Below are positions 5,395-30,871 of a stretch of 39,253 nucleotides of DNA, piece by piece; position 1 is the first letter of the stretch; every line of letters starts with the position of its first letter. Both the position numbers and the translations under genes were made by a program. The stretch comes from a virus: the IMG/VR virus record IMGVR_UViG_3300037400_001181, positions 1-39,253 of that record. One strand, 5' to 3'. The notes beneath the pieces were generated by a model, which saw only the letters and a list, made by a program, of their open reading frames with translations, was not told where the DNA came from and made no database searches.

Positions 5395-7107
5395 TCACCT
5401 CTCTAGCAACTGCTTAAATTCTGTCCGATAGCGCCGGTACATCTCGTACAGGATGATGAGGGTCACAGCGCCGTCAATCCGCTTTTGCGGCTCCAGTTTG
5501 ACCGCCATGCAGCGGCCTACGCTGTCCACGTCGATACCGGCATTTTTCAGGTTCCATTTGTCCACTGGGTTGTCGTTATAGTTGATGAGTTGGTGGGCAA
5601 AATCAGCCTCGCACAGCTTCATGGCATTACTCAACGTCTCCCGGTTCTGCAAGATCAGGATCAGGTCATCGTTGGCCTTCTGCCAGCCGTAAAACTCCAT
5701 CTGGTTGAGCCAGTCTTTTGAGAAGCGCTGGTCATAACCGCACTTCCACAGCTTGATGTCATAGGACACATACAGCTGGTAGAACCAGTCCGCCACCAGG
5801 GCAAGGTCGATGTCATTGCCCTCTGATACGGTGATGTATCCGGCCTTCGCCCATTCTGCGTATTCGGCGCCAGCGTTCTTGTCGTCGGATTCCGTCAACT
5901 TCCGCTCCGGAATGAAATACATCGTGTAGATGTACTTTGTATTGTCACCAGGCTTCATTAGCAGGATTTTGGCGCAGGTCAAGTCGGTGGTCTCCGACAT
6001 ATCCACTGCCCCCAGGCAGATGCAGCCCCGGAAGTCTTCCAGGTCGTAGACGGCCTGATAGTCATAGTCCTCCAGGGTCAGCCACGCCTGTCCGCCGTTC
6101 TGCTTGATGTTGAAATCCTTGGCCAGAACAAAGATTCTGTCCGCCTTGCTCGTCCTGGCCATGTCCACCTGTTCCTCTAAGTACTCCCACTTTTTAACGA
6201 TGCCCAAGGTGGGATTGCTCTTCATCCACAGCCGGTTCTCACGGTCACCCTGCCACACCTCCAGTTCGCTGTCCTGGGTGTAGAGCCACGGCAGCAGACG
6301 TTCCCCTGCTATGCCGGTGTCCTCCCGGTGGATGACCGCACGGGCCTTTTTCAGCTCCTCATCCAGGTATCCGTCCACCACGAAACCTTCCGTCGTGATA
6401 TTGATAAACTTCGGGTTATCTTTCAAGGACTGGGACTGCTCAACAGACTTGCCGATGACATTCTCTTTCATCTCATGGGTCTCGTCCACAATCGCGAAGT
6501 CGATGTTCCGTCCCTCTTTATTTTTCGTCCGGTCGGACATCTTGAACACTTTGGTATTGGTGACCTTGTTCAAAATGAAGCGCTGGTTCCGCTTGGTGTC
6601 CAGGTCGTTTGGGTCAATGAGCATCCGCATGGTGTCGATCGCATCATAGACCAGACTGGCCTGGGTGTCATCGTTGGAGCTGCAACAAATATCTGCACCC
6701 TCGTTCCCCGTGATAAACTCAGACAGCCCCAGCGCCGATGAAGTTTCGCTCTTCGTATTCTTCCGGGCAATCAATAGGATGGTCTTTTTGAACCGGTCAA
6801 AGCCGGTATCGGCCATTTTGAACGAGTAGAGCGCTTCAATCCACGCCTTCTGCCAGAGCATGAGGACCATGGGTTGATTGTAGAACGGCGACTTTGTCAG
6901 CCGCACGCAATGCTCCATGAAGTCCATGCGCAGGTTGGCGGTATCGGTGTTGTAGAAATAGCGGTCGTTGTGGAAATCCTCATACAAGTTCTCTAGCTCC
7001 TGCCACAGCTCTTGCCCAATGATAATCTCCCCACTCTCAGCCCGTGCCCGGTATTCCAGCAGGAATGAGTTATCAGGCGTCCAAAGCGTTTTTTCACGTA
7101 TAATCAC
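5395..7107 (-). CDS. terL: Terminase large subunit
   Basis: 570 aa, GTG start overlapping the upstream stop (GTGA). ATPase N-terminal half and nuclease C-terminal half by similarity. It precedes the portal gene. Confidence 0.9.
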   Translation of the reverse strand: MIIREKTLWTPDNSFLLEYRARAESGEIIIGQELWQELENLYEDFHNDRYFYNTDTANLRMDFMEHCVRLTKSPFYNQPMVLMLWQKAWIEALYSFKMADTGFDRFKKTILLIARKNTKSETSSALGLSEFITGNEGADICCSSNDDTQASLVYDAIDTMRMLIDPNDLDTKRNQRFILNKVTNTKVFKMSDRTKNKEGRNIDFAIVDETHEMKENVIGKSVEQSQSLKDNPKFINITTEGFVVDGYLDEELKKARAVIHREDTGIAGERLLPWLYTQDSELEVWQGDRENRLWMKSNPTLGIVKKWEYLEEQVDMARTSKADRIFVLAKDFNIKQNGGQAWLTLEDYDYQAVYDLEDFRGCICLGAVDMSETTDLTCAKILLMKPGDNTKYIYTMYFIPERKLTESDDKNAGAEYAEWAKAGYITVSEGNDIDLALVADWFYQLYVSYDIKLWKCGYDQRFSKDWLNQMEFYGWQKANDDLILILQNRETLSNAMKLCEADFAHQLINYNDNPVDKWNLKNAGIDVDSVGRCMAVKLEPQKRIDGAVTLIILYEMYRRYRTEFKQLLER

Positions 7108-15239: not shown

Positions 15240-15500
15240 GTATCTTGTTCTCGGGAAATTTTGCTTTAGTCACGGACAGGGGAAGGAAGGACGGCGGCCT
15301 GCTTTCAGCCGCCTTTCTTTCCCCCGTGACCGTCAGGGAAGAAAACTTGTTTTACCCCCCTTTAGGGGGGTACTTTTTTCTTCCCTCGGAAAAAAGGGCG
15401 TTTTCCCCTTTTTTCTTTCCTGCAAAACCGAGGGAAAATAGGAGTCGTTTTTCCTTCCCTCCCTGGGAAAAATGAAAGTTTTCCTTCATTTTTCCCTCTC
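15240..15500. other. Non-coding hairpin/iteron-rich region (candidate replication origin)
   Basis: 62-nt imperfect hairpin at 15269-15330. Perfect inverted repeats at 15390-15414 and 15465-15496. Repeated GGGAAA(A)/TTTTCCC motifs. Lies between the primase-helicase and rusA genes. Confidence 0.4.
15353..15380 (+). terminator. Plus-strand intrinsic terminator-like hairpin
   Basis: tacccccc-ttta-ggggggta followed by cttttttc. The U tract exists only on the plus strand, although all flanking genes are on the minus strand. Confidence 0.5.
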
Positions 15501-17708
15501 TGTATCGGTTTCTCCTTGAAAAACACGTCCGCCTTCTGTGCGAAAAACACCACTTTCTTTTATGTAGTTCCGCACTGTTTTTTCGCTGACATCCATATAT
15601 TCAGCCAGCGCTTCCACGGTAACGCCATCCCCCATATCGCAGTATCCGAAGGCTGTTTCAAGCGCCTCTTTCCGTGCGCTCCGGCGATCTCTTTTGTTCC
15701 CGGCGCGCTTCCCAGACTTGGCAAAATTCCGCTTCCAACTAGGCAAATCCTCATCCGGATTCAGGTCACCCAGCACGCCAGAAAAGTCAACTTTATGAAC
15801 CGGATATTCAAACCAGATATTCAGCGCGGGGAACTTGGGGAACTCTCTCAACGTGCCCTCGATGCGCCAGCCGGTGACGGCGTCTGTCCGCTGTTCTGTC
15901 TGCTCCACTTCCGTCAAAAGCTCGTTGTATGCCCTGGTCGGTAAGTAGTCCGCGCAAGCATCCAGCGCCGCCCGGCGGGAGCACAGATCATCCTGCCCCA
16001 CCTTATCCAGCTGGTCATATCGCTTGAGCCATTGGCCGCAGAGCTGCCCCACAGCGTTGTTCTTCCGCTGCTCTCGCAGCTCGTCTGTCAGTTCCAATTC
16101 AATCATATCCAGGAGAGCATCTGGGTCTCGCGCGAACACGCCGGAGCCGCTGGCTCTGTCCATGCTGCGCTTGCCGCCCTGGGCACCTTTTGAGTGATGG
16201 TGGCAGTAGATGACGGCACAGCCCAACTCGGTACAGACCTTATCAAACTGGTTGCAGAAGGCGGCCATTTGGTCGGCGCTATTCTCATCGCCAGTGATGA
16301 CCTTATAGATGGGGTCGATGATGATGGCAATGTAGCTCTGCTTCGCCGCTCGACGGATGAGTTTCGGAGCCAGCTTGTCCATGGGGACGGAGTGGCCACG
16401 CAGGTTCCAGATGCTGACGCCATGCTGGGACGGCGCTCCCATGGCCTGTCTCACGTCCCGGAACCGGTGCAGGCAGGACGCACGGTCCAGCTCCAGATTG
16501 ACATACATGACCTTGCCCTGAGCGCACTTGAATCCCATCCAGGGCAATCCCTCCGCGATGCAGATGGCCAGCTCGATGAGGGCGAAGGACTTGCCCGCCT
16601 TGCTGGGGCCAGCCAGCAGCATCTTGTGTCCCTGCCGCAAAATGCCCTCAATGAGCGGCGGGGACAGCTCCGGCAGGTTGTCGGTCAGGTCGTCCTCTAC
16701 GTCCGGCAGGTCATCGTTGGCGCCCTCGATCCAGTCACGCCATTCCGCCCAGCTGCTCTTGCCCACATTCACCGCCAGCAGGCTCTGCTGTATGCCCTTC
16801 CGGGTCACCCCGGGCATTCGGGACAACCGGGACGGGTTCCGGTTCTGCTGGTCCACCGCAAGGCCGTTCTTCTTGCAGACGGTATAGAGGTAGTCCACTC
16901 GACTGCGGTATTCCCGGTAATCCGGCGCGTCCACCTTCACGATGGCGTGGAGGCTTTTCCCGCCGCTATGTACCAGGCAGGCGATGGGCAGCTCCAGCGC
17001 TTTCAGAGTAGCATACTGCTCCTCTATGGGCATCTCATCCGACTCCACCAGGGCGTAGTTGTAGGCGGTGACATTCTCATTTCGGACGCCGTTGCCGTCC
17101 AGTGGGTTGAACCGGATCCACGCCCCTGCATCCGGGTTCCAGTCCTGCACCACCCGACCAAGGTCGCCGTCGCAGATGGACAGATCTTCGATGAGTTCTC
17201 CTGCCGTCTGGTCATAGCGGCCTTTCTGGGGCATATATCGCCCATCCCGTTCCCACGCCTTTGTGACATAGCCCACCAGGTCAGAGCTGTCAAAGAGGGT
17301 CTCCAGGTAGGTGGTCAGCTGCTGCACCGGGCTGCCCAGCGGGAGGGGCAGCTCCTGCCCCTCCAACCAGTTCTTGTCTACCACCACTAGGTCATCGCGC
17401 TCGGCGGAAATGACATCGTCCCAGCCAATCTCTGCCCCCAGCCCGTTGGGCACCCAGCCATGATCCTTCGCCATGGCCACGATGGTGCCGCCGGTGACAG
17501 GAGAGGCTGTGGCAGCATGGAAGCTCTGCCACTTCTTCTCGCAGTTCCCCGGTCTGTATCGACTGTCCGGGCGGCTCCAATCGTCCCACACCTGCCAGCC
17601 AAAGCCCTCCAGCTTCAGCGCCATACCCACGTTGCACCACTCCTGATAGTTTGTGCTGGCCACTGGGATGGCGTTCAGGGCGTCTAAAATGTACGTTTTG
17701 GATTCCAT
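15486..17708 (-). CDS. Primase-polymerase / RecA-fold helicase fusion with C-terminal HTH
   Basis: 740 aa. PriCT-2-like N-terminus (WCNVGMALK...WDDWS...CEKKWQSF), AEP-like HSGGKSLHAIV, Walker A GPSKAGKS, and a C-terminal VSEKTVRNYIKESG. Confidence 0.85.
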   Translation of the reverse strand: MESKTYILDALNAIPVASTNYQEWCNVGMALKLEGFGWQVWDDWSRPDSRYRPGNCEKKWQSFHAATASPVTGGTIVAMAKDHGWVPNGLGAEIGWDDVISAERDDLVVVDKNWLEGQELPLPLGSPVQQLTTYLETLFDSSDLVGYVTKAWERDGRYMPQKGRYDQTAGELIEDLSICDGDLGRVVQDWNPDAGAWIRFNPLDGNGVRNENVTAYNYALVESDEMPIEEQYATLKALELPIACLVHSGGKSLHAIVKVDAPDYREYRSRVDYLYTVCKKNGLAVDQQNRNPSRLSRMPGVTRKGIQQSLLAVNVGKSSWAEWRDWIEGANDDLPDVEDDLTDNLPELSPPLIEGILRQGHKMLLAGPSKAGKSFALIELAICIAEGLPWMGFKCAQGKVMYVNLELDRASCLHRFRDVRQAMGAPSQHGVSIWNLRGHSVPMDKLAPKLIRRAAKQSYIAIIIDPIYKVITGDENSADQMAAFCNQFDKVCTELGCAVIYCHHHSKGAQGGKRSMDRASGSGVFARDPDALLDMIELELTDELREQRKNNAVGQLCGQWLKRYDQLDKVGQDDLCSRRAALDACADYLPTRAYNELLTEVEQTEQRTDAVTGWRIEGTLREFPKFPALNIWFEYPVHKVDFSGVLGDLNPDEDLPSWKRNFAKSGKRAGNKRDRRSARKEALETAFGYCDMGDGVTVEALAEYMDVSEKTVRNYIKESGVFRTEGGRVFQGETDTEREK

Positions 17709-17714
17709 CTTTCG

Positions 17715-19307
17715 TTACCTTTCCGGGCGGAACTCTTTGGGCGTGACGCCCCTGGGTACCCGCCAGCGATTGGAGGCAATGCGGTCGATCATATTCTTCG
17801 CCCCATCGAACGACCAGGTCCCCACATTAGAAAAGCCATATCGCTCTAGGCAACGAATCTGCTTGGGCGTTGATAAGCCGTCCATCCGGCGCTTCCGGAT
17901 CCGATCCAGCAACAGACTGGCCTTTCCGGCGTTGTCGATCTGGTCAGGGAGAATCCCAGCTCGTTCCAATTCCTTGCACTGGGCGTCGCTGGGCGGCATC
18001 ATCTCCCATCCGAAGGACGGAATGTACCCTGCCAAATCCTCTGCCTGAATGGACATCTCGAACTGCAACGGGTCCACCAAGCGCCGCTTGCGCTTGCGCA
18101 TATCCTCCAGCTGCTGCGCCAGGGCTTCCTCTCGCTGGGCGATGACATCCTGGTTGGCTTTCTGCTCCGCCTCATCTATATCCACGGCGCACCCCGCCAC
18201 ATCCTCCAGGTTCTCCGTCATCTTCTGGGCTACCTCATCGCTCTCACAGATGAGGCTGGCCGGGTGGCACAGCTCATGCCGTGCCGTGTGCCAGAGGAAG
18301 TCCAGCAATAACAGGTGGTCTTTGCCCGGGTGGAGTCGAGTTCCACGCCCCACCATCTGACTGTAAAGACTCCGCACTTTGGTCGGCCGCAGTACCACCA
18401 CACAATCCACGCTGGGGCAGTCCCAGCCCTCCGTCAGCAGCATGGAGTTGCAGAGGACGTTGTATTCTCCCCGGTCAAAGGCTTCCAACACCTCTGCCCG
18501 GTCGGGGCTGTTGCCGTTGACCTCGGCGGCCAGGAAGCCATGGGCGTTCAGGATGTCCCGGAACTTCTGGCTCGTCTTGACCAGGGGCAGGAACACCACC
18601 GTCTTGCGTGTTTTGCAGACCTTCTCCATCTCTGTGGCGATCTGCTCTAGATAAGGGTCTAAGGCCGTGCTGATCTCCGCTGCCTTAAAATCCCCTGCCT
18701 GCACGCTGACGCCGGACAGATCCAGAGACAGCGGGATGGTCAGGGCTTTGATGGGCACCAGATAGCCCTCCCGGATGGCTTTCGGCATGGTGTACTCATA
18801 GGCCAGGCTCTCAAAGACCTTGCCCAGGTTCCGCATATCCCCCCGGTCCGGGGTTGCGGTGACCCCCAGCACTTTGGCCGACGAGAAGTGTTCCAGCACC
18901 CGCTGATAGCTGTCAGACACGGCGTGATGTGCCTCGTCGATGACGATGGTCTGGAAATAGTCCTTGCCGAACTGACTCAGCCGCTTTTCCCGCATCATGG
19001 TCTGCACGGAGCCAACCACCACTCGATACCAGGTGCCCAGGCAGCTTTGGCCTGCCTTCTCCACCGCACAGCCCAGGCCAACGGCCTTCTGCATCTTGTC
19101 CGCCGCCTGGTCCAGCAGCTCCCCCCGGTGGGCTAAGATCAGGACTCGTTCCCCGTTGCGCACCATATCCTCGACGATCTTCACAAAGACGATGGTCTTG
19201 CCGCAGCCGGTGGGGAGCACCAGCAGCGTCCGGCCAATGCCCCGCTGCCACTGCTCCTCCACTGCTTCCCGCGCCGCCTGCTGATAAGGGCGCAGCTCAA
19301 CCCCCAT
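17715..19307 (-). CDS. DEAD/DEAH-box SF2 helicase
   Basis: 530 aa. LPTGCGKT (motif I) and IDEAHH (motif II). TGATG overlap with the upstream gene. Confidence 0.85.
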   Translation of the reverse strand: MGVELRPYQQAAREAVEEQWQRGIGRTLLVLPTGCGKTIVFVKIVEDMVRNGERVLILAHRGELLDQAADKMQKAVGLGCAVEKAGQSCLGTWYRVVVGSVQTMMREKRLSQFGKDYFQTIVIDEAHHAVSDSYQRVLEHFSSAKVLGVTATPDRGDMRNLGKVFESLAYEYTMPKAIREGYLVPIKALTIPLSLDLSGVSVQAGDFKAAEISTALDPYLEQIATEMEKVCKTRKTVVFLPLVKTSQKFRDILNAHGFLAAEVNGNSPDRAEVLEAFDRGEYNVLCNSMLLTEGWDCPSVDCVVVLRPTKVRSLYSQMVGRGTRLHPGKDHLLLLDFLWHTARHELCHPASLICESDEVAQKMTENLEDVAGCAVDIDEAEQKANQDVIAQREEALAQQLEDMRKRKRRLVDPLQFEMSIQAEDLAGYIPSFGWEMMPPSDAQCKELERAGILPDQIDNAGKASLLLDRIRKRRMDGLSTPKQIRCLERYGFSNVGTWSFDGAKNMIDRIASNRWRVPRGVTPKEFRPER

Positions 19308-19843
19308 CAGAACGTCCCCGCCTGCCAGTGGCCGGGTGCGGGATACCCGGCCATGCTCTGCTGCTGGCCGTATGCCGGGTTAGGGGCAGGCTGTGCCGGT
19401 GCCGCCGGCGGCATCTGCTGGCCGGGCGCCGGTTCTAAGTAGGACTTCACTTTGTTGGCCTGGCCGGTGTCTCCATTGTTTTTCGTCCAGGTGCGCACGC
19501 CGATCTCGCAGCGCCCACGAGCTCCGACGATGGCATTCCAGTTCACCCGGCATGGCACGCCAGGCCGCTTCATACCGATACCAATGAGGAACTGGCTCAG
19601 ACGCCATTCTGCCTTGCGGTTCATGAACAAGGTGTCCCGGACGGTCGTGCCGCCCGCCTCCAGGGACAGTTCTACCTTATTGCAGGCGCACATCTTGGCG
19701 CCGCCGGGGTAGCGGCCACGTTCGAACTTGCTGACCACAAAGTCATACTGACCCGGCTCCAGCAGCACGAACGAACTCTCTTCGGCGATCTCATCGTCCC
19801 AACCGATCTCTGCGCCCATGTTGTCGTTGATATAGTCACTCAT
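19307..19843 (-). CDS. DUF669-like protein (ssDNA-binding-type accessory of Sak4 recombinases)
   Basis: 178 aa directly after the Sak4-like ATPase, with a Pro/Gln-rich tail ending in ...WQAGTF. Family call is from gene order and recollection of DUF669, not from a search. Confidence 0.55.
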   Translation of the reverse strand: MSDYINDNMGAEIGWDDEIAEESSFVLLEPGQYDFVVSKFERGRYPGGAKMCACNKVELSLEAGGTTVRDTLFMNRKAEWRLSQFLIGIGMKRPGVPCRVNWNAIVGARGRCEIGVRTWTKNNGDTGQANKVKSYLEPAPGQQMPPAAPAQPAPNPAYGQQQSMAGYPAPGHWQAGTF

Positions 19844-19860
19844 GATGTATCCTCCTTAAT

Positions 19861-20994
19861 TTAGAACGGCAGCTCTGCTCTGTCTGCCTTGACTGCTTCA
19901 AACACCTGGGGCCACGCCGCGATCAGGCAGCCCTCAATGAACTCCTGTGGATAATCCTGCACCGGCATGTCCAGCGGGAAGTACCCCTTCCCCCCTACCA
20001 CCAGTCTAATCTCAGACGGCGTGACCTGATTTTCTCGCAGCAGGTCCGCCAGCGGCGGATAGATCCCTTTCAAGCTGTTGGAGAACGTGAAGGGCGGCAC
20101 ATCGTCATCCGTAGACGCATCCTGCGCAGTAGCAGGAGCTGCGGAAGCGGGAGCAGCCGGGGCCACGTTTGTAGCCGCAGGGGTAGGGTTTTCCGGCATT
20201 ATCTGCGCCGCTGAGACAGCGGGCGGCTCCGGCGCCACAGTGGGCGGCACGGGTGCCGGGGTCGGCGGTGTCTGTACCGCAGGTGCGAAGATGTGGGCGA
20301 TCTGGCCGTAGTCCATTGGCATCTCGTCGGGGAGACCGTGGCGGTTTTTGGCCACGAACGCCGGGCGGGTCGCTGCGTACATCGTGCGCTGGCCGCCCTG
20401 CCCCTTCCCTTTCTGGCCTTTGTTGTCGGTGGAAATGACCATCACCTTATAATTGCAAAACAGAATCATATCTGCCCATTCCATCGTCAGCGCAGTGATT
20501 TTGGGGTCACACTTTAAAGACCACTGGTCATATTTTCCGAACTGGTCAGGCTGTTCCACGTGCTTCAGCACACTGTGGGCAGTCAGGACAACGTGAACTC
20601 CCTTGGATGTGAGCAAGTCCAGCAGGTCCAGCAATCTGCCGTACTCCTCCGCTGCGTAGGTATATCCCTTCCCGTAGTCGAAATCTTCAATGCCTTGCTT
20701 CCCTACACGCTGCGCCACCGCAGTATTGCACTGTTTCGCCGCCCAGTCCGCCGTGTCAATGACCAGCGTTCCCAGTTCGCCGGGGTGGTCGATTGCATAC
20801 TGCACCTCGCTTTTGAGCATCTCCCAGCTGGACGGCGCGGGGAATCGAGCCACATCAAAGTTCCGCGTACTCCCCTCCGTGTCAATGAATACGGCATTGG
20901 GGAACTGCGCCGCCAGTGTCGTTTTCCCAATGCCAGGGACACCATAGATGATGACCTTCTGCCCGCAAGGGATACGGCCTCTTGTGATTTCCAT
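19861..20994 (-). CDS. Sak4-like RecA-type AAA ATPase (AAA_24-like) with Pro/Ala linker and extra C-terminal domain
   Basis: ATG at 20994 is 7 nt after AAAGGAG (the GTG at 21015 has no RBS). Walker A YGVPGIGKTT. Confidence 0.8.
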   Translation of the reverse strand: MEITRGRIPCGQKVIIYGVPGIGKTTLAAQFPNAVFIDTEGSTRNFDVARFPAPSSWEMLKSEVQYAIDHPGELGTLVIDTADWAAKQCNTAVAQRVGKQGIEDFDYGKGYTYAAEEYGRLLDLLDLLTSKGVHVVLTAHSVLKHVEQPDQFGKYDQWSLKCDPKITALTMEWADMILFCNYKVMVISTDNKGQKGKGQGGQRTMYAATRPAFVAKNRHGLPDEMPMDYGQIAHIFAPAVQTPPTPAPVPPTVAPEPPAVSAAQIMPENPTPAATNVAPAAPASAAPATAQDASTDDDVPPFTFSNSLKGIYPPLADLLRENQVTPSEIRLVVGGKGYFPLDMPVQDYPQEFIEGCLIAAWPQVFEAVKADRAELPF

Positions 20995-22271
20995 CAAAAT
21001 ACTCCTTTCTGCCACTGCTGTGCAGGCGGGGCAAATTCAGGCTCTGGAGCCTTTACCAGCCCATCTTCAATGATGATGCTGCACTCTCCGCCGGTGCTGA
21101 CCCTAGTGGCGATGGCCTGCAAGCCCTCCTGTTCCAGCCATACGCCGAACTCCCGGAGGGTGGCCAAGTCCATCTGCTCCAGCTTGTCCAGCAGGACAAA
21201 GGCGCAGTTTGGGTTCAGCCGCCGGACAATGGCGGTGGCTACTCTCAGCTGGTCAGACCCGGACATATTGCCCCACGGCTGGCCATGATAGAGCAGCTTG
21301 CCGTTTTCTACCGACAGCCCAGGCAAGGGCAGGTCGGCCTGGGTCAGAAGTTCCGTCCGCTGACGGCGGATGCTGCCAATCTCCTCTGTCAGCGCCCGAT
21401 ATTCCGCGTCCAGGGCTTCTGCCGCCTGCATGGCGTTGGCCTTCGCCTGGTTCGTCCGCACCTGCTGATTGATCTGGTCGATGCGTTGGAGGTCAGCCTC
21501 CAGCTGTGTGGTGGACTCGTCCACCAGCCCCACCGTGGCCTGTTCCGCCGCCACGATGTCACTTGATACCCGCTCATACTGTTCCCGCAGCATATCCAGC
21601 TGTTCCGCCAGACTGCGCTGTTCCGCTTTCAGCTGGGACAGGTTTTCCCGCTTGCGCCGGTTCTCCTCGTTGCGCCACAAGATCTCCTGCTGCCGCTGGA
21701 TCAGCTCCAGGGCTGACACCTCCTGCGCTGGAGCGCCCTTCACCTCCGGCAGCTCGTCCGCATACTTCCGCTTCTGCTGGTACTGCTGGCCGATGTAGCG
21801 CCGCTTGTTATACGCTTCTGCCTCCTGGCGGTCCATGGTCACGAGCTGGTCTCCTACGCCGATGATGCGCAGCAGGGTGTCTGCCTTCTCTTTGTCGGAC
21901 GCCTGCATAAATTTGGGCAGATTGAGGGCCAGCTCTTCCACAAAGCTGTTCAAGAGCTGCTGACCGGCTCGCTTGCCGGTGGGGTCTGTGACCTTCAGGG
22001 TGGCGTTTTTCCCGCTCCGCTCCACGACACAGCCGTTGGAGAGGGTGACGCGCAGCCGGGGCGGCGTGTTTGCACCCTCCCGCATGGGGTTGTCTGGCCG
22101 GAAGCGCTCACCGCCCAGCGCCCAGGCGATGGCGTCTAATACCGACGTCTTGCCCTGGTTGTTGTTGCCGCCGATGACCGTCAGGCCAGTCTCCGCCGGT
22201 GTGATAGTCACCGCTCGCACACGCTTGGTGTTCTCGATCTCAAGCTGGTTGATATGTGCGCCTTGCTTCAT
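20994..22271 (-). CDS. SMC/Rad50/SbcC-like ATPase
   Basis: 425 aa. Walker A GGNNNQGKTS, a long central coiled coil, signature-like SGSDQL, and Walker B FVLLDKLE. Confidence 0.8.
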   Translation of the reverse strand: MKQGAHINQLEIENTKRVRAVTITPAETGLTVIGGNNNQGKTSVLDAIAWALGGERFRPDNPMREGANTPPRLRVTLSNGCVVERSGKNATLKVTDPTGKRAGQQLLNSFVEELALNLPKFMQASDKEKADTLLRIIGVGDQLVTMDRQEAEAYNKRRYIGQQYQQKRKYADELPEVKGAPAQEVSALELIQRQQEILWRNEENRRKRENLSQLKAEQRSLAEQLDMLREQYERVSSDIVAAEQATVGLVDESTTQLEADLQRIDQINQQVRTNQAKANAMQAAEALDAEYRALTEEIGSIRRQRTELLTQADLPLPGLSVENGKLLYHGQPWGNMSGSDQLRVATAIVRRLNPNCAFVLLDKLEQMDLATLREFGVWLEQEGLQAIATRVSTGGECSIIIEDGLVKAPEPEFAPPAQQWQKGVF

Positions 22272-22354: not shown

Positions 22355-23002
22355 TTACGTTCTGTGCGCCTCCAGCTCTGGCAGCACTGCGCAGAGCTTG
22401 TCCCAGTTTGCCTTGACCGCACCGGTCTCCCATAGCGATACAGTCGCCTGGGTCACTCCGACTATAGCTGCAAGCCCACTCTGGGTCATACCCTGGGCTT
22501 TGCGCGCCAGCGCAATGCATTTCTGCCCGGCGGCGACCTTGTCCTTGTTCGCCTCGTAGTACGCCTTCTGCCGGGCGGCGATCTTGTCCTTGTTCGCCTC
22601 GTACCACGCCTTCTGCTGGGCGGCGATCTTGTCCTTGTTCGCCTCGCGGTACGCCTTCTGCCGGGCGGCGATCTTGTCCTTGTTCGCCTCGTAGTACGCC
22701 TTCTGCCCGGCGGCGACCTTGTCCTTGTTCGCCTCGTAGTACGCCTTCTGCCGGGCGGCGATCTTGTCCTTGTTCGCCTCGCGCCACGCCTTCTGCCGGG
22801 CGGCGACCTTGTCCTTGTTCGCCTCGCGCCACGCCTTCTGCCGGGCGGCGACTGCTTTTTGTTTTGTCGTCTTTGGGTTGATGATGTCCTTGTCGATGAC
22901 GTCGAGCTCTTTGTGCTCATCCCATGTCAGAGCCGCCTCCAGGCACTCATCCGGCACATCGGGATAGGGGCACTCCAGGCAGTTGTAGTTGCACTCGATC
23001 AT
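22355..23002 (-). CDS. Cys-cluster + 7x 15-aa repeat + XRE-type HTH protein
   Basis: Start at ATG 23002 (8 nt after AGGAG); 23008 is also possible. MIECNYNCLECPYPD..., then repeats AARQKA[WY][RY]EANKDK[VI], then HTH MTQSGLAAIVGVTQATVSLWETG. Confidence 0.7.
   Translation of the reverse strand: MIECNYNCLECPYPDVPDECLEAALTWDEHKELDVIDKDIINPKTTKQKAVAARQKAWREANKDKVAARQKAWREANKDKIAARQKAYYEANKDKVAAGQKAYYEANKDKIAARQKAYREANKDKIAAQQKAWYEANKDKIAARQKAYYEANKDKVAAGQKCIALARKAQGMTQSGLAAIVGVTQATVSLWETGAVKANWDKLCAVLPELEAHRT
22520..22851. repeat. 45-bp tandem repeat, about 7.4 copies, in frame within the CDS
   Basis: Unit cttctgccgggcggcgatcttgtccttgttcgcctcg..acgc recurs at 22565, 22610, 22655, 22700, 22745, 22790 and 22835. 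Confidence 0.95.
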
Positions 23003-23013
23003 GTCCATCTCTC

Positions 23014-23322
23014 CTATCTTTGCGTAAGCTTGCTTGTCCTGCGGCGTCGCACGCTCCGGCACTGGCTGATGTTGTTGACATCATTGGCTATCCGCTCGCC
23101 CTCGCTGACCCTGGCCACCGCGATGAGCTTGGCGTACACCGCATAATGGGTGCAACTATCGTGGCAGGTGGCCGTCCTGCCGGTATCTGGCGTACAGCCC
23201 CAGCACGGTGCTGCCACCCGTCCCAGTCGATAGCAGACCGGACACAGCTCCGCCGCGCCGACCGTCACCAGGGTTTGGGTGTTCCATAGGCGCTGGCAGT
23301 GGGCGCAGGGTCTGCGGCTCAC
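23014..23322 (-). CDS. Cys-rich (CxxC pairs) small protein
   Basis: 102 aa with a GTG start in a GTGA overlap. CAHC, CPVC, CWGC and CHDSC motifs suggest a zinc ribbon. Confidence 0.4.
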   Translation of the reverse strand: MSRRPCAHCQRLWNTQTLVTVGAAELCPVCYRLGRVAAPCWGCTPDTGRTATCHDSCTHYAVYAKLIAVARVSEGERIANDVNNISQCRSVRRRRTSKLTQR

Positions 23323-24714: not shown

Positions 24715-25479
24715 TCAGCTGGCCAGCCCCTGGCACAGCAGGCGGAAGGTCTCTCTGCCCTTCGGCGTGACCAGCGTCTGGACGCCTGCCCACTGGGTTC
24801 TTTCGTTGACACATTCTTTCAACTCAAACAGGCCGTTGTTCTTGTTCTCGTAGGCCAGCAGCTTGCCTTTCTTATCCCGGTACAGGTACTTGTGCTCGAT
24901 GAGCCAGTTGACAAACTTCTTGGGCGGGATACCCAGCTGCTTTGCCGTCTCTCTGAAATTGGTCAGCAGGCCACGTTCAACCAGCTCATCGAAGTAGTCC
25001 GCCTTAGGCTGCAGGATTGCCTTGTCTACCGTCAGAGTGGCGTTGACGACCTCCAGCGCCTTGCGCTTATCCGTTTCTTCCTTCAAGGCAGTCACCACTT
25101 GAAGCAGGTAGTCCGGGTTGAGAATGGCCGCCTCCAACGTCTCCTGCGTCATGTAGGCTCCGGTCTTGCGGATGGACGGGATGACGTCATGCGTAATCCA
25201 GTGCTTAAACTCCTTCGCCCCAGGCAGTTTGCTGGAGAGGATAAGACAGTACAGGCCGGACTCGTTGATGATGGTCATATTGGGGTTGCCACGATTACCG
25301 TCGGGATTCACGACGGTATTCTTATCCTCCTTTTCGACATGGCGGTCGAGCGCGTCCCGGGTGTTGCTATACCCCAGCGCTTCCGCCACGTCCTTTCCAA
25401 CAAAACAAGGCTCGTTGTCGATCTCAATAGTTCTCACCTGACCAAAGGTCGGGTTCTCAAATACTTTCAGTTCGTTCAA
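24715..25479 (-). CDS. Antirepressor (Bro-N + KilA-C/ANT domains)
   Basis: 254 aa, TTG start 7 nt after AAGGAGG. FENPTFGQVRTIEIDNEPCFVGKDVAEALGY is Bro-N-like. The C-terminal half is KilAC-like. Confidence 0.85.
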   Translation of the reverse strand: MNELKVFENPTFGQVRTIEIDNEPCFVGKDVAEALGYSNTRDALDRHVEKEDKNTVVNPDGNRGNPNMTIINESGLYCLILSSKLPGAKEFKHWITHDVIPSIRKTGAYMTQETLEAAILNPDYLLQVVTALKEETDKRKALEVVNATLTVDKAILQPKADYFDELVERGLLTNFRETAKQLGIPPKKFVNWLIEHKYLYRDKKGKLLAYENKNNGLFELKECVNERTQWAGVQTLVTPKGRETFRLLCQGLAS

Positions 25480-25504
25480 TTATGTTCCTCCTTTTAATTC
25501 TCAG

Positions 25505-25885
25505 TGGACTTTCGCTCAATTTTGAGTGAAAGTCTAGTTAGCTACTTCGTCCGGATTTCGGACGAAGGATACCAAGGGGTCACGGAAACGGTGACTCCTA
25601 GGGGTCGTGAAACGCGACCCCATCTCAACCCGCTCAAGGGGTGTCCATTTCAGACCCCCTACCGTCGCGTTTCACGACGGTAGTCATAGCAACCCACTTA
25701 GAATCGAGCCAAAGCTCAGGGTCAAAATGCCCCGGAGTTTGGGCACACGACTCCTATGGGGTCACGAATCGTTACCCCACCCCAACCCGCTCAATTTTGA
25801 GAGAAAGCCTAGTCAGCTGCTTCGGACGGATTTCGGACGCACAAACTCTGTAGATACCAAGCGTACGAATTTCGTTCGGCTGGGT
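25505..25885. other. Hairpin-dense, repeat-containing non-coding region (candidate structured RNA or operator array)
   Basis: At least 7 hairpins: 25507-34, 25545-67, 25576-98, 25601-21, 25638-58, 25659-83, 25758-78. Direct repeats 25513-25576 and 25788-25861. 15-nt inverted repeat 25604-18 / 25664-78. No convincing ORF. Confidence 0.6.
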
Positions 25886-25889
25886 TAGA

Positions 25890-26183
25890 TCACACCTCCA
25901 GATATAGGCCCACATTCACCTCAACACGAATCTTCGCATCGGGTCTGTCTTGCTGAATCTTCTCAATCCATTTTGACGCAGTTTCATATTTAGACCCAGG
26001 AGACAGTTTGATAATGAATACGACTGGGCGCAGGTGCGGTGCTGGGGTGCAACTCTTCGGGAGTTCACTAAACCTCTCGACTTCTTTCTTGGGCATCAGG
26101 ATTTTATATGGCGGGTCCGGAATCGGAATGCGTGCATCTCTTTTTATCACACGTCTCACCTCCAAACTTGTTTGCCCCTTCAT
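25890..26183 (-). CDS. Doubtful hypothetical ORF (97 aa)
   Basis: Open frame only. Neither Met candidate has a Shine-Dalgarno sequence, unlike nearly all other genes here. Confidence 0.25.
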   Translation of the reverse strand: MKGQTSLEVRRVIKRDARIPIPDPPYKILMPKKEVERFSELPKSCTPAPHLRPVVFIIKLSPGSKYETASKWIEKIQQDRPDAKIRVEVNVGLYLEV

Positions 26184-26230: not shown

Positions 26231-26626
26231 TTGGAATTATCTACACTGTCTATTTGCATCAGCGTCGCTGTTGCTTTTGCCGCGATCATCTCACCCATCA
26301 TCGTCACGATCTTAAATAATCGCCATCAACTCAAACTAAAAAAACTCGAATTAGAGCAGCAGCACTTTGAGCGGACTACTATGCACAAGCGTGAGCTCGT
26401 CGAGAATTACCTCCGTGCTACGGGCGCTCTTTTGGCTTGTCAAGATGTTTCGACGGGAAAGGAATATGGGAACTATTACTTCAAGACCCTTCTGTATGTT
26501 GGTGGTGACACTAGAGCTTGGATGGAAAATGTGAACACATATATTGATCTGGGCAATTTTGAAGCCGCTGCCACTCAACTTGGAAAAGCTATTCCAGAGA
26601 TAGAACGGTTCGTACAAAGACTGTGA
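26231..26626 (+). CDS. N-terminally membrane-anchored protein (131 aa), plus-strand moron
   Basis: TTG start after GAAAGGGG. TM segment LSICISVAVAFAAIISPIIVTIL, then a helical soluble part. AT-richer sequence. Confidence 0.55.
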   Translation: MELSTLSICISVAVAFAAIISPIIVTILNNRHQLKLKKLELEQQHFERTTMHKRELVENYLRATGALLACQDVSTGKEYGNYYFKTLLYVGGDTRAWMENVNTYIDLGNFEAAATQLGKAIPEIERFVQRL

Positions 26627-27238: not shown

Positions 27239-27267
27239 ATAATAGCACGATGGTGATTCTGTGTCAA
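27239..27267 (-). promoter_or_regulatory. Early lytic promoter (cro side)
   Basis: On the minus strand: TTGACA, 17-nt spacer, TATTAT. Confidence 0.65.
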
Positions 27268-27295
27268 CCCCCAGGGACAAAAACGAAAGAAATAG

Positions 27296-27324
27296 TTGAC
27301 ATACAATCACGCGCGCAATATAAT
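27296..27324 (+). promoter_or_regulatory. Repressor-gene promoter
   Basis: TTGACA (27296-27301), 17-nt spacer, TATAAT (27319-27324), followed by an AAAGGAG RBS and the ATG at 27351. Confidence 0.7.
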
Positions 27325-27350: not shown

Positions 27351-28142
27351 ATGACATTATATGAACGAATTAGACATCGCCGCGAGCAGCTAGGCATATC
27401 CCAAGGGCAACTGGCAGAAGAACTAGGCTATACAAATCGCTCCACCATCGCAAAAATCGAATCGGGGAAGAACGACATTACCCAGTCAAAGATTGTTGCT
27501 TTTGCACACGCGCTATCTACGACCCCGCAGTATCTGATGGGCTGGACAGACGACCCCTACGACTACGACAACGACCCTAACGGGGTGCTGGCCAGTATAC
27601 CAAGCAACGTCCGCAAAGAACTGACCAAACTTCATCCGGATGACCCGGAGGCTGTTTGGCACGCCTGGGAAGCTATTATAAACGACCATGATGCGGGAGA
27701 CACATCCACCCCCACACCTCCTGAATACCGCTACGACAACATCTTCCCCATCACGACCAAGCGTGTGCCCTTTCTGGGCAGTATCGCCTGTGGCGAACCT
27801 GTTTTCGCAAACGAGGAACACGAGCTATATGTAGAGGTCGGCACCAATGTCCACGCCGATTTTTGTTTACAAGCTGCCGGTGACTCAATGATTGGGGCAA
27901 GGATACATGACGGCGACATCGTGTTCATCCGGAAGCAGGATATGGTGGACAACGGCGAAATCGCCGCCGTGATTATAGAGGACGAGGCAACCCTAAAACG
28001 TGTGAATTATTACCCTGACAAGAACCTGCTCATCCTACACGCCGAGAATCCCAGCTACAAAGACCTCATCTATACGGACGCTGAGCTTGACCAGATTGTC
28101 ATACTTGGCAAGGCGGTGGCGTTTCAAAGTGATGTGAGATAA
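27351..28142 (+). CDS. cI/LexA-type repressor (XRE HTH + S24 peptidase)
   Basis: 263 aa. HTH LGISQGQLAEELGYTNRSTIAKIESG; S24 motifs AAGDSM (Ser) and ATLKRV (Lys). Confidence 0.9.
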   Translation: MTLYERIRHRREQLGISQGQLAEELGYTNRSTIAKIESGKNDITQSKIVAFAHALSTTPQYLMGWTDDPYDYDNDPNGVLASIPSNVRKELTKLHPDDPEAVWHAWEAIINDHDAGDTSTPTPPEYRYDNIFPITTKRVPFLGSIACGEPVFANEEHELYVEVGTNVHADFCLQAAGDSMIGARIHDGDIVFIRKQDMVDNGEIAAVIIEDEATLKRVNYYPDKNLLILHAENPSYKDLIYTDAELDQIVILGKAVAFQSDVR

Positions 28143-29559: not shown

Positions 29560-29698
29560 CAAAAGATGCTACTGAGTAACATCACCCCGCCGGAATTACT
29601 ATCATTTCGGCGGGGTTGCCAAAATGATGATGAATGGCAAAAAACCGCCCCGGAGCCGGAACGCCAGGGCGGTTAAAAATAGAAAGGAGAAGGATAAA

Positions 29699-30871
29699 AT
29701 GGCAAAAAGAAAAGCCCCCAACGGGGCTGGGAGCATACGGAAGCGGTCAGATGGTCGCTGGGAGGGTCGGTACACTGCCGGATACGACGGCGGTACAGGG
29801 AAGCCCATCCGGCGCACGGTCTATGGCAGAACCCAGAAGGAAGTCAGGCAAAAGCTGACCGACGTCTCTCGGGCGTTGGACACCGGCACCTACCAAGAGC
29901 CGTCCTCTCTGACCGTGGCAGAATGGCTGGAAGAGTGGCTGACCGTATTCTGCGTGAACAAGGTAAAGCCCCTCACGATGACCAGCTATCGGGGTATCGC
30001 CAAGAACCACATCAATCCCAGGATTGGAGCCGTGCGGCTCCAGGACGTGCGGGGGACGCAGATACAAAGGCTGTACAACGATATGCTCCAGAATGGGTCA
30101 AGCCCCAAGACGATCAAGAATGTTGGAGCTGTCCTGCACAAGGCGTTCGCCGTGGCTCGAAAACAAGGCTATATCCAAATCAACCCCTGCGACAATGCGG
30201 AGCTGCCTAAGGTCGAGCGAAAAGAGATCAAGCCGCTGACCGAAGCTGACATCCCGCTGTTTCTCCGCGCCTGCTCTGGGTCGCCGATGGGCAACGCCTA
30301 TGCGCTCTGCCTGCTGGCTGGGTTGCGTGAGGGGGAGTGCATGGGGCTGGCCTGGGACGACGTAGACTTCGAGCGGGGACTCATCACCGTCCGCCAGCAG
30401 CTGCAAAAGCAGAAAGAGCGAGGCGGCACGTATTACATAGCGCCAACGAAGAGCAGTAAAATCCGTGTCGTCGCCCCACCCCCTATCGCCTTTGACTATC
30501 TCCGACTCGAGTGGGCAAAGCAAGCGCAAAACCAACTCAAGCACGGGGACGTTTGGGACAACCCATGGAACCTGGTGTTCACAAATGAAATCGGTGAGCA
30601 CTACAAAACTTTCACCTTCTACAGGCGCTTCAAGGCCATTGCCCAGGCGATTGGCAGGCCAGACGCCAGGCCACATGACCTGCGGCACACGGCGGCGACT
30701 GTGGCGATCGCGAACGGAGTTGATATTAAGAGCGTCCAGTCTATGCTAGGCCATGCGACGGCCTCCTTCACCTTGGATGTTTACGCCCATACTTCCCAAA
30801 AGATGATGGAAGCCAGCGCCGCAAAGGTGCAAGGCTTCTATGACAAGCTCAAAAATCAGAAAAGCGGCTAA
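29699..30871 (+). CDS. int: Tyrosine integrase with N-terminal arm-binding domain
   Basis: ATG at 29699 follows AAAGGAGAAGG. GSIRKRSDGRWEGRY is an arm-type DNA-binding domain. HDLRHTAAT and LGH...LDVYAH are catalytic motifs. Confidence 0.9.
   Translation: MAKRKAPNGAGSIRKRSDGRWEGRYTAGYDGGTGKPIRRTVYGRTQKEVRQKLTDVSRALDTGTYQEPSSLTVAEWLEEWLTVFCVNKVKPLTMTSYRGIAKNHINPRIGAVRLQDVRGTQIQRLYNDMLQNGSSPKTIKNVGAVLHKAFAVARKQGYIQINPCDNAELPKVERKEIKPLTEADIPLFLRACSGSPMGNAYALCLLAGLREGECMGLAWDDVDFERGLITVRQQLQKQKERGGTYYIAPTKSSKIRVVAPPPIAFDYLRLEWAKQAQNQLKHGDVWDNPWNLVFTNEIGEHYKTFTFYRRFKAIAQAIGRPDARPHDLRHTAATVAIANGVDIKSVQSMLGHATASFTLDVYAHTSQKMMEASAAKVQGFYDKLKNQKSG

Follow-up and report, generated by a model that had tools for sequence, protein, structure and literature searches.

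The window analysed here is a stretch of 39,253 nucleotides (nt) of viral DNA, positions 1 to 39,253 of the IMG/VR virus record IMGVR_UViG_3300037400_001181. It is a prophage whose early lytic operon lies on the minus strand. We studied its positions 25480-25889, a 410-nt region between two genes of this operon, ORF97 and the antirepressor-like gene ant. The two genes and the features of the region, including two direct repeats designated D1 and D2 (copies a and b) and the hairpins H3, H4 and H5, are as follows.

24715-25479, minus strand: ant, antirepressor-like gene with Bro-N and KilAC/ANT domains (domain match)
25283-25318, minus strand: palindrome inside ant, TACCGTCG-TGAATCC-CGACGGTA (codons ~54-61), with its 3' flank; putative pairing target of H5 and site of a loop flip
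25480-25889, minus strand: putative untranslated leader of ant, a patchwork of palindromic cassettes (gene layout, hairpin enrichment, no Pfam match)
25507-25534: hairpin GACTTTCGCTCA-ATTT-TGAGTGAAAGTC, 11 base pairs (bp) plus one G-T pair; apparent copy (weak match) of the palindrome inside antirepressor genes of an AntA-like type
25513-25564: D1a, the ant-proximal copy of D1, with two intact hairpins (repeat search)
25545-25567: hairpin CTTCGTCCG-GATTT-CGGACGAAG, 9 bp; copy of an ORF6N-type antirepressor gene palindrome
25565-25787: segment of 223 nt that, with one D1 copy, makes up 275 nt without counterpart in short-form relatives
25575-25599: H3 hairpin, GGGGTCAC-GGAAACG-GTGACTCC; no close source allele
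25601-25637: D2a, with the H4 hairpin GGGGTCG-TGAAACG-CGACCCC; read on the minus strand as DGVAFHDP, it matches a loop cassette of L068-type Bro-N genes
25638-25658: weak hairpin GGGGT...ACCCC, 5 bp; the plus strand reads GVSISDP, with weak blastx similarity only
25660-25695: H5 with a 13-nt flank, inverted copy of ant codons 54-65 (sequence comparison)
25749-25794: D2b, with the hairpin GGGGTCACG-AAT-CGTTACCCC; read on the minus strand as GVTIRDPIG, it matches a loop cassette of L019-type Bro-N genes
25788-25839: D1b, the D1 copy distal to ant, whose hairpins are degenerate; recombination joint at 25839/25840
25840-25889, minus strand: spacer after the ORF97 stop codon, common to short-form relatives, with a weak palindrome CGAACGAAATTCGTACG
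25890-26183, minus strand: ORF97, upstream gene of the same operon, without family assignment (list of open reading frames (ORFs), domain search)

We counted hairpins with 8 or more Watson-Crick pairs and no more than one mismatch. The 410 nt contain six of them (25507-25534, 25543-25569, 25575-25599, 25601-25621, 25659-25683 and 25757-25779), as compared with 0.18 on average and never more than 2 in 300 dinucleotide shuffles and a mean of 0.4 in 410-nt tiles across the window. The fold of the whole region has z-scores of -8.5 on the plus strand and -5.8 on the minus strand. The copies of D1 (25513-25564 and 25788-25839) are 52 nt long and 88% identical, and those of D2 (25601-25637 and 25758-25794) are 37 nt long and 81% identical, both D2 copies following GACTCCTA(T)GGGG, at 25593 and 25749; 25604-25618 and 25664-25678 form a perfect 15-nt inverted repeat. 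An earlier note, made from the letters alone, had described a hairpin-dense non-coding region upstream of an antirepressor, a long direct repeat that brackets its core and whose second copy has disrupted hairpins, a second repeat at about 25594 and 25750, and a 15-nt core in both orientations at 25604 and 25664. All of this was borne out by the hairpin counts, the lack of a Pfam match, D1 with its degenerate copy D1b, D2, the inverted repeat and the domains of the downstream gene.

The note had also held that the hairpins, without U tracts, are not terminators, and our scan of both strands agrees: from 25480 to 25889 it found neither terminator-like nor promoter-like sites, and no hairpin of the region is followed by a U tract. 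Only the palindrome inside ant (plus strand, 25296-25318) and one cassette of the related contig L102, with T6, are loosely terminator-like. The ant-internal hairpin was considered as the terminator of an antisense RNA and dropped: its T-rich tail comes from conserved E-D-K codons, there is no antisense promoter, and the AntA-type example lacks the T-run. An Rfam scan, which the note had proposed, found no family (no match at gathering score in the whole window, best E-values of 6-10 in the region, and nothing at E<=5 in positions 1200-2600 of the related contig L107). The tRNA/tmRNA scan and Tandem Repeats Finder each found nothing in the region.

Mechanical plus-strand ORFs of 59-93 residues exist in the region. 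Its six frames gave no match in Pfam, with no Bro-N or ANT at E<=10, and gene callers called nothing at the homologous region in more than 10 contigs. We rejected an ant pseudogene on the six-frame result. A hidden Markov model of the ant family matched only a 16-residue stretch encoded by a palindrome (7.4 bits), and the resemblance of the plus-strand peptide GVTETVTPRGRET to the KilAC C-terminus is best explained by the palindrome itself. In blastx the region had only weak matches, in several frames, and blastn against INPHARED phages (E<=0.01) gave none. The D1 and D2 patterns had no match in IMG/VR; the D2 pattern had nine in GTDB genomes, from unrelated phyla, which match in pattern only and number about what chance would give.

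We compared the region with a set of ant homologues from 80 IMG/VR loci (L001-L080). Its blastn similarities to these loci lie only inside the ant genes, at nt ~148-197. Most of its well-formed hairpins are near-copies of palindromes internal to antirepressor genes, 81-100% identical over 23-38 nt, in direct or flipped orientation. The correspondences are listed below, P0009 being a sister allele of ant.

25507-25534: Javan116-type palindrome, antirepressor codons 49-59; 26/30, a single weak match (E=8)
25545-25567 and its D1b twin 25827-25853: ORF6N palindrome TGTGCGTCCG-AAATC-CGGACGCACA of L102; 27 nt at 96% (D1b version)
25601-25626: L068-type cassette (DGVAFHDP), ant nt 158-183; 24/26
25660-25682: the window's own ant palindrome, direct copy; 21/23
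25660-25695, inverted: allele P0009 including the 13-nt flank; 31/36
25753-25779: L019-type cassette (GVTIRDPIG); 25/27

Bro-N genes of S. pneumoniae phages likewise contain matches to the cassette at 25749-25794. For H3 (25575-25599) and the weak hairpin at 25638-25658 we found no close source allele. The exact-motif IMG/VR matches of H3 are unrelated; with H4 included, the exact motifs occur mostly in an unrelated gene family, and only L148/L158/L162 and L161 are relevant. Positions 5525-5542 of L102 are an inverted partial copy of H3. Elsewhere in the window, no further copy of the region's palindromes was found except the ant-internal one. When the longer array carried by relatives (see below) was searched at permissive thresholds against 2.3 Gb of phage records, 21 of the 26 weak matches fell inside annotated antirepressor or Bro-N genes, from phages of Streptococcus, Staphylococcus, Lactobacillus, Enterococcus and Acinetobacter. 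One array cassette equals the sister allele P0013 at 28/28 nt. The piece kept in each cassette is the palindrome with 0-13 flanking bases. These comparisons show the leader to be a mosaic of 20-40-nt palindromic cassettes, most of the well-formed ones from Bro-N-, ORF6N- and AntA-type genes, the AntA match being weak. The palindrome GGGGTCGTGAAACGCGACCCC is also present, as an inverted DGVAFHDPM cassette, ahead of unrelated Bro-N genes (47% identical), at a distance of about 200 nt, and beside the end of a repressor gene (L148 11654-11684, L162 7844-7874 and L161 2761-2787); there are thus hints that the leader cassettes recur beyond the window's lineage.

Every ant allele at the 80 loci has a palindrome at nt ~148-197, with unrelated sequences and differing codon phases. 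It sits ~150-185 nt after the start codon, in a hypervariable segment flanked by two conserved motifs, E-D-K and I-N-E-S-G; other examples are GGGGTGAACG-AAA-CGTTCACCCC in L032 and CTCAGTCCCA-ATT-TGGGATTGAG in L037. At least 8 paired bases were present at this site in 64% of 36 unique alleles, as compared with 1.2% of 433 control segments of the same genes (Mann-Whitney p = 2e-15). This count of paired stems replaced a minimum free energy (MFE) test of the internal hairpin on synonymous shuffles, which gave a mixed outcome (mean z = -1.0; 31% of alleles below -2); peptides rich in G, D and P fold well whatever codons are used. When alleles of an Acinetobacter phage and of gut phages were compared at the residues that they share, third-codon-position identity was 0.91-1.0 at the palindrome and 0.46-0.50 gene-wide, a peak that reflects constraint on the nucleotides themselves or else a recent transfer of the cassette. 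What separates near-identical alleles is an exchanged central cassette of ~100-150 nt, palindrome included. Palindromes also occur at the equivalent position of the ORF6N-domain gene of L102 (3470-3500) and of the AntA-like antirepressor of Streptococcus phage Javan116 (L105 1201-1230). A 7-12-bp palindrome is thus present at the equivalent hypervariable-loop position in three N-terminal domain families, its structure kept and its sequence not. Among the 80 homologues we found no comparable upstream array and no second copy of the own palindrome within 3 kb. The literature searched contained no description of a palindrome inside Bro-N/antirepressor genes, nor of such cassette arrays.

The leader varies in length among relatives. 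Ten metagenome contigs have exactly ORF97, and nine of them reach the leader; in these nine and in L103, 25788 is joined straight to 25564, leaving one D1 copy, which is D1a, and a leader of 135 nt. L119 and L120 combine this short form with a 98%-identical ant. The 275-nt portion is missing in L082-L091, L103 and L119/L120 and present in L092, L110, L102 and L107-L116, which shows that natural phages can do without ~275 nt of the region. L102 and at least 10 more contigs (L107-L116) carry the whole region at 97.6-99.6% identity and have more cassettes past D1b; in this long form an array of ~650 nt lies inside a ~1060-nt gap after a gene for a 72-residue helix-turn-helix (HTH) protein. The homology of L102 stops at 25839, and the ORF97-type relatives resume from 25840. 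From these leader forms we conclude that the window, L092 and L110 are recombinants joined in D1b at 25839/25840. The comparison shows as their parents an array-ant module with the ~650-nt array and an ORF97-D1-ant phage with the 135-nt leader, and D1 serves as portable homology. Two further contigs hold variants of the array: L117b has the distal part only, before another Bro-N gene, and L128 has a diverged array with indels and one cassette replaced by a different palindrome.

Some further observations concern these relatives. In L117 (2365-5555), two antirepressor-type genes stand in tandem, in the order ant, HTH gene, array and Bro-N-only gene; because of this layout, the HTH-array-Bro-N unit behaves as a movable module. 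The long-form gap contains an uncalled ORF for a 56-residue Cys-rich, zinc-ribbon-like protein on the strand opposite ant (L102 ~5843-6013, plus strand; L107 ~1450-1690, antisense), with an extended -10 promoter (TGTGGTATAAT) and a strong ribosome-binding site, and also a possible 56-residue sense ORF (MGEQVYRRF...) overlapping the distal cassettes. L123 has an IS200-like Y1 transposase gene (1212-1688; Y1_Tnp, E = 4e-39), of the hairpin-dependent single-strand type, 0.8 kb from ant. No Y1_Tnp was found among the window ORFs tested, and the link to a transposase is confined to L123.

Both the gene and the array bear marks of template switching at palindromes. In P0009 (L129 350-372, corresponding to 25296-25318 of the window) the loop is inverted from TGAATCC to GGATTCA, which changes NTVVNPDG to NTVGIHDG, in an ant otherwise 98-99% identical to that of the window; this flip rests on one contig, and L129 begins exactly inside the H5 palindrome, so that an assembly or library artefact is possible. 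It was the sole local change among 16 aligned close alleles. The loop of array element 7 reads TGATCCC in L107 and GGAATCA in L128. Element 5 shows a compensatory T-A to C-G change and an altered loop between L102 and L117b, the L117b version reading LTRRFGGS, the loop peptide of P0013. In one palindrome of the array, ant codons 10-13 are joined to an inverted copy of themselves. We infer one process behind both the diversity of the Ant loop and the make-up of the leader: palindromes would fold back during replication, and the ensuing template switches would flip loops, correct stems and copy short hairpin-centred patches of ant genes into the leader.

Several known processes resemble this in part. 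Minute inversions associated with hairpins in chloroplast non-coding DNA and quasi-palindrome template-switch mutations of the Ripley type are systems for comparison; the present case is like minute inversions in that loops occur in both orientations within near-identical sequences and arms are co-corrected, and unlike them in that the change lies inside a protein-coding loop, alters 3-4 residues at once and is coupled to copying of cassettes into a leader. REP and BIME elements are clustered imperfect palindromes of 20-40 nt, in both orientations, in transcribed intergenic regions of operons, and their copy number varies between strains. The region shares with them the clustering of imperfect palindromes in both orientations. 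It differs in that nearly every palindrome is different and derives from the coding sequence of one gene class, and in that the window has no dispersed copies and no RAYT/Y1 transposase among the ORFs tested.

We read the region as a cis-acting leader of ant that was built by template switching and may damp ant, with a probability of about 0.5. It is probably transcribed on the minus strand within the early lytic operon, because a strong promoter-like site lies at 27267-27239 and there is no terminator before ant. On the minus-strand RNA, 25660-25695 is antisense to ant codons 54-65 (25283-25318). The predicted duplex between leader and coding sequence has ~33 bp and -54.8 kcal/mol, as compared with -33.7 kcal/mol for both local hairpins together and an average of -23 kcal/mol (standard deviation 4) for shuffled-control duplexes. 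When the leader and the 5' coding sequence (521 nt) are folded together, both the MFE and the centroid structure contain this duplex, which encloses the ribosome-binding site. The H5 cassette would thus zip with codons 54-65, enclosing the ribosome-binding site and the 5' coding region, and the helix would lower ant expression by double-strand RNA cleavage or a translation block. The other cassettes would contribute stable local structure, and any effect would act in cis on the ant mRNA. That the pairing could reduce ant expression is the weakest step.

Several points weigh against a cis-regulatory leader. The long-range helix is predicted from thermodynamics only, and ribosomes translating ant would melt it. 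Any regulation would be optional, because natural short-form phages without the H5 cassette exist. Most cassettes have no obvious cis target, because they match non-resident alleles. The conservation of the array says little on selection, because its carriers are near-clonal. Although the array has diverged less than ant and the xis-like gene (2/360 and 34/1149 differences, respectively; p = 0.005), this difference stems partly from a 13-difference recombination patch in ant. Finally, the upkeep of stems can result from mutational correction of palindromes rather than from selection.

The leader invites comparison with the c4 (immI) element of P1/P7 and sar of P22, which likewise are RNA elements beside ant with complementarity to its mRNA. 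The c4 regulator of P1 is part of the ant transcript, upstream of ant, and is processed by RNase P, and in the c4/sar systems, as here, the specificity types differ between related phages. Like P1 c4, the cassette at 25660-25695 is upstream of ant and on the same strand. It differs from c4 and sar in that its target is codons 54-65 rather than the ribosome-binding region, in that the element is optional in relatives and most hairpins match foreign alleles, and in that no sequence or Rfam relationship links them; we found no dedicated promoter, terminator or RNase P-type processing signal in the region. The analogy to c4 and sar drawn in the earlier note holds in part: c4-like logic is plausible in view of the one cassette complementary to ant mRNA, though that cassette targets coding sequence; being on the strand of ant, it lends no support to a plus-strand antisense RNA. 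A sar-type RNA would have its own promoter opposite ant and overlap the ant ribosome-binding site, whereas the region has no promoter-like site and the full array no strand bias. In Firmicutes mobile elements, pLS20-family conjugation operons provide a parallel in layout, having a zipper-type attenuator leader with an intrinsic terminator and family-wide conservation (PMC13401043). The present leader, likewise several hundred nt long and on a Firmicutes mobile element, has distant complementary segments that could extend a helix or switch conformations, as in that system (PMC13401043), but it has no terminator and is not kept in relatives. Nor does the region look like a CRISPR array or RNA anti-CRISPR, with constant 28-37-nt repeats and variable spacers, or like a ToxI-type element of a type III toxin-antitoxin system, with tandem ~36-nt repeats: its repeats are degenerate and two-copy only, none is tandem, and its cassettes are heterogeneous.

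A strong rival to the cis leader, which we regard as possible though doubtful, is a neutral scar left by fork stalling and template switching, or by illegitimate recombination, among co-replicating phages with differing antirepressor alleles; the array would then have no function and survive only through the youth of its lineage. Presence or absence of the array beside the same ant, in forms of 135, 410 and ~1060 nt, is what a scar would give, as are short patches of many alleles in both orientations with few-nucleotide joins, the broken hairpins of D1b and the indels and cassette replacement in L128. The carrier contigs are almost clonal as well, with ant 96-100% identical, and yet the array was seen in at least 12 independent samples and on three backbones, and 400-650 nt of non-coding DNA are uncommon in a compact phage genome. 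A scar also sits poorly with the retention of hairpin-centred pieces only, with stems that are intact or compensated in the L107, L117b and L128 arrays, and with the leader ORF6N cassette, which gained matching outer stem bases (CTTCGTCCG/CGGACGAAG as against TGTGCGTCCG/CGGACGCACA in the source). The palindromes may instead work as DNA, as sites of a recombinase or structure-specific nuclease or as operators of a dimeric DNA-binding protein, which we consider decidedly unlikely. In the recombinase version, inversion between 25283-25318 and 25660-25695, a 36-nt inverted repeat (29/36 identical) flanking the 5' end of ant, would act as an on/off switch of ant, or cassettes would convert the variable Bro-N loop. 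The stability of the hairpins is without sense/antisense bias across 33 alleles (Wilcoxon p = 0.45) and in the arrays, and the loop flips show DNA folding back or recombining at palindromes. There is no invertase gene nearby, however, only the prophage integrase and an HTH_17 gene, and more than 25 contigs contained no inverted or converted variant except one pure loop flip. An array of partial variable-segment copies, from many alleles and in both orientations, beside an expressed gene is also found in silent-cassette loci such as Neisseria pilS/pilE and Borrelia vls; unlike those, the present cassettes measure 25-40 nt, far less than the ~100-150 nt swapped between alleles, have almost no flanking homology and are confined to one lineage, and the expressed alleles are not cassette mosaics, each hairpin type staying with its own ~100-nt flanks in 16 aligned alleles, none of which was distinguished by a cassette swap alone. 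Operators for a dimeric protein had been the alternative of the earlier note. Many palindromes do have 7-9-bp arms around a 7-nt centre, but since all differ, one sequence-specific protein cannot bind them all; they match palindromes internal to the antirepressor genes of many unrelated phages, and the same array stands beside different repressors in L102 and the window, which makes operators unlikely.

The earlier note had favoured a plus-strand RNA antisense to the ant leader, from G-T pairs that it saw on the plus strand. As one or more RNAs pairing with the ant mRNA of the own or competing phages, as with sar of P22, this now seems very improbable. The G-T asymmetry is real for the hairpins at 25507 and 25575 and the inner pairs of that at 25601, and fails for the one at 25659, which is more stable on the minus strand, and over the full array. 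Although 4/6 hairpins of the 390-bp part are more stable as plus-strand RNA, and the plus-strand z-score is the lower one (-8.5 vs -5.8), the full-array energies in L107 are even (-134.5 kcal/mol ant-sense, -137.1 antisense), and the L128 array favours the ant-sense strand. Direct-copy cassettes would be antisense on the plus strand, where one L102 cassette is followed by T6; the window's copy, however, has no terminator, no plus-strand promoter-like site lies in or near the region in the window or L107, the sole long-form promoter on that strand points away from the array, and there is no Rfam family. Hardly credible is a replication origin or other essential cis site (packaging, partition): the DNA is non-coding, rich in repeats and palindromes, and placed in the early region upstream of the AAA_23, AAA_24, helicase and PriCT_2 module, whereas close relatives lack it although the genes on either side are the same, and it has no single-sequence iterons, AT-rich stretch or tandem repeats and travels with ant rather than with the replication genes. 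An unlikely extension joins gene and leader, the internal palindrome, which flips and is swapped as a cassette, being a built-in device of specificity and diversification and the leader array a functional multi-allelic library. RNA copies from the array may then be antisense or decoy partners of hairpins in ant mRNA, its own in cis and those of competitors in trans, amounting perhaps to polyvalent immI-type immunity or anti-immunity; alternatively, the copies may be donors that re-program the Ant loop.

Antirepressors decide the waking of prophages and can act across co-resident prophages. To our knowledge, the control of their expression and specificity has been described mainly in P22, P1 and N15 and hardly in Firmicutes phages. 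The present comparison exposes a palindrome of conserved structure and variable sequence at the same spot in three antirepressor domain families, with loop flips and reduced synonymous change, and a gut-phage lineage that has amassed palindrome copies of many alleles in the leader of ant. If functional, these elements give access to the regulation of antirepressors and to the competition between phages in polylysogens, and natural variants of 135, 410 and 1060 nt with the same gene exist. If non-functional, the array records cleanly, in natural phage genomes, template switching driven by hairpins, and cautions against taking every hairpin cluster for an RNA gene.

The wider surroundings of the leader in the window are as follows.

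15486-22271, minus strand: replication genes AAA_23, AAA_24, helicase and PriCT_2 primase-helicase (domains)
27239-27267, minus strand: promoter-like site of the early lytic operon, 11/12 match with TG (promoter scan)
27239-27324, both strands: divergent promoter pair facing the repressor (promoter scan)
27351-28142, plus strand: cI-like repressor, HTH_3 and Peptidase_S24 (domains)
29624-30871: tyrosine integrase (domains)

The HTH_17 gene comes after ant. Within the early operon, a gene for a 131-residue protein without assigned function lies on the opposite strand (26231-26626, plus strand) and is also kept in L081, L092, L110 and L119. The minus-strand gene at 22355-23062, whose product the earlier note had called the repeat-HTH protein, encodes 235 residues with about nine tandem 10-residue units (QKAWREANKDKxAAR-like) and a C-terminal HTH_3. 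Next to the start of the primase-helicase gene (15486-17708, minus strand), positions 15353-15496 contain three strong hairpins that have T runs, such as GAAAAAAGGG-CGTTTTC-CCCTTTTTTC, and resemble ordinary, possibly bidirectional, terminators.

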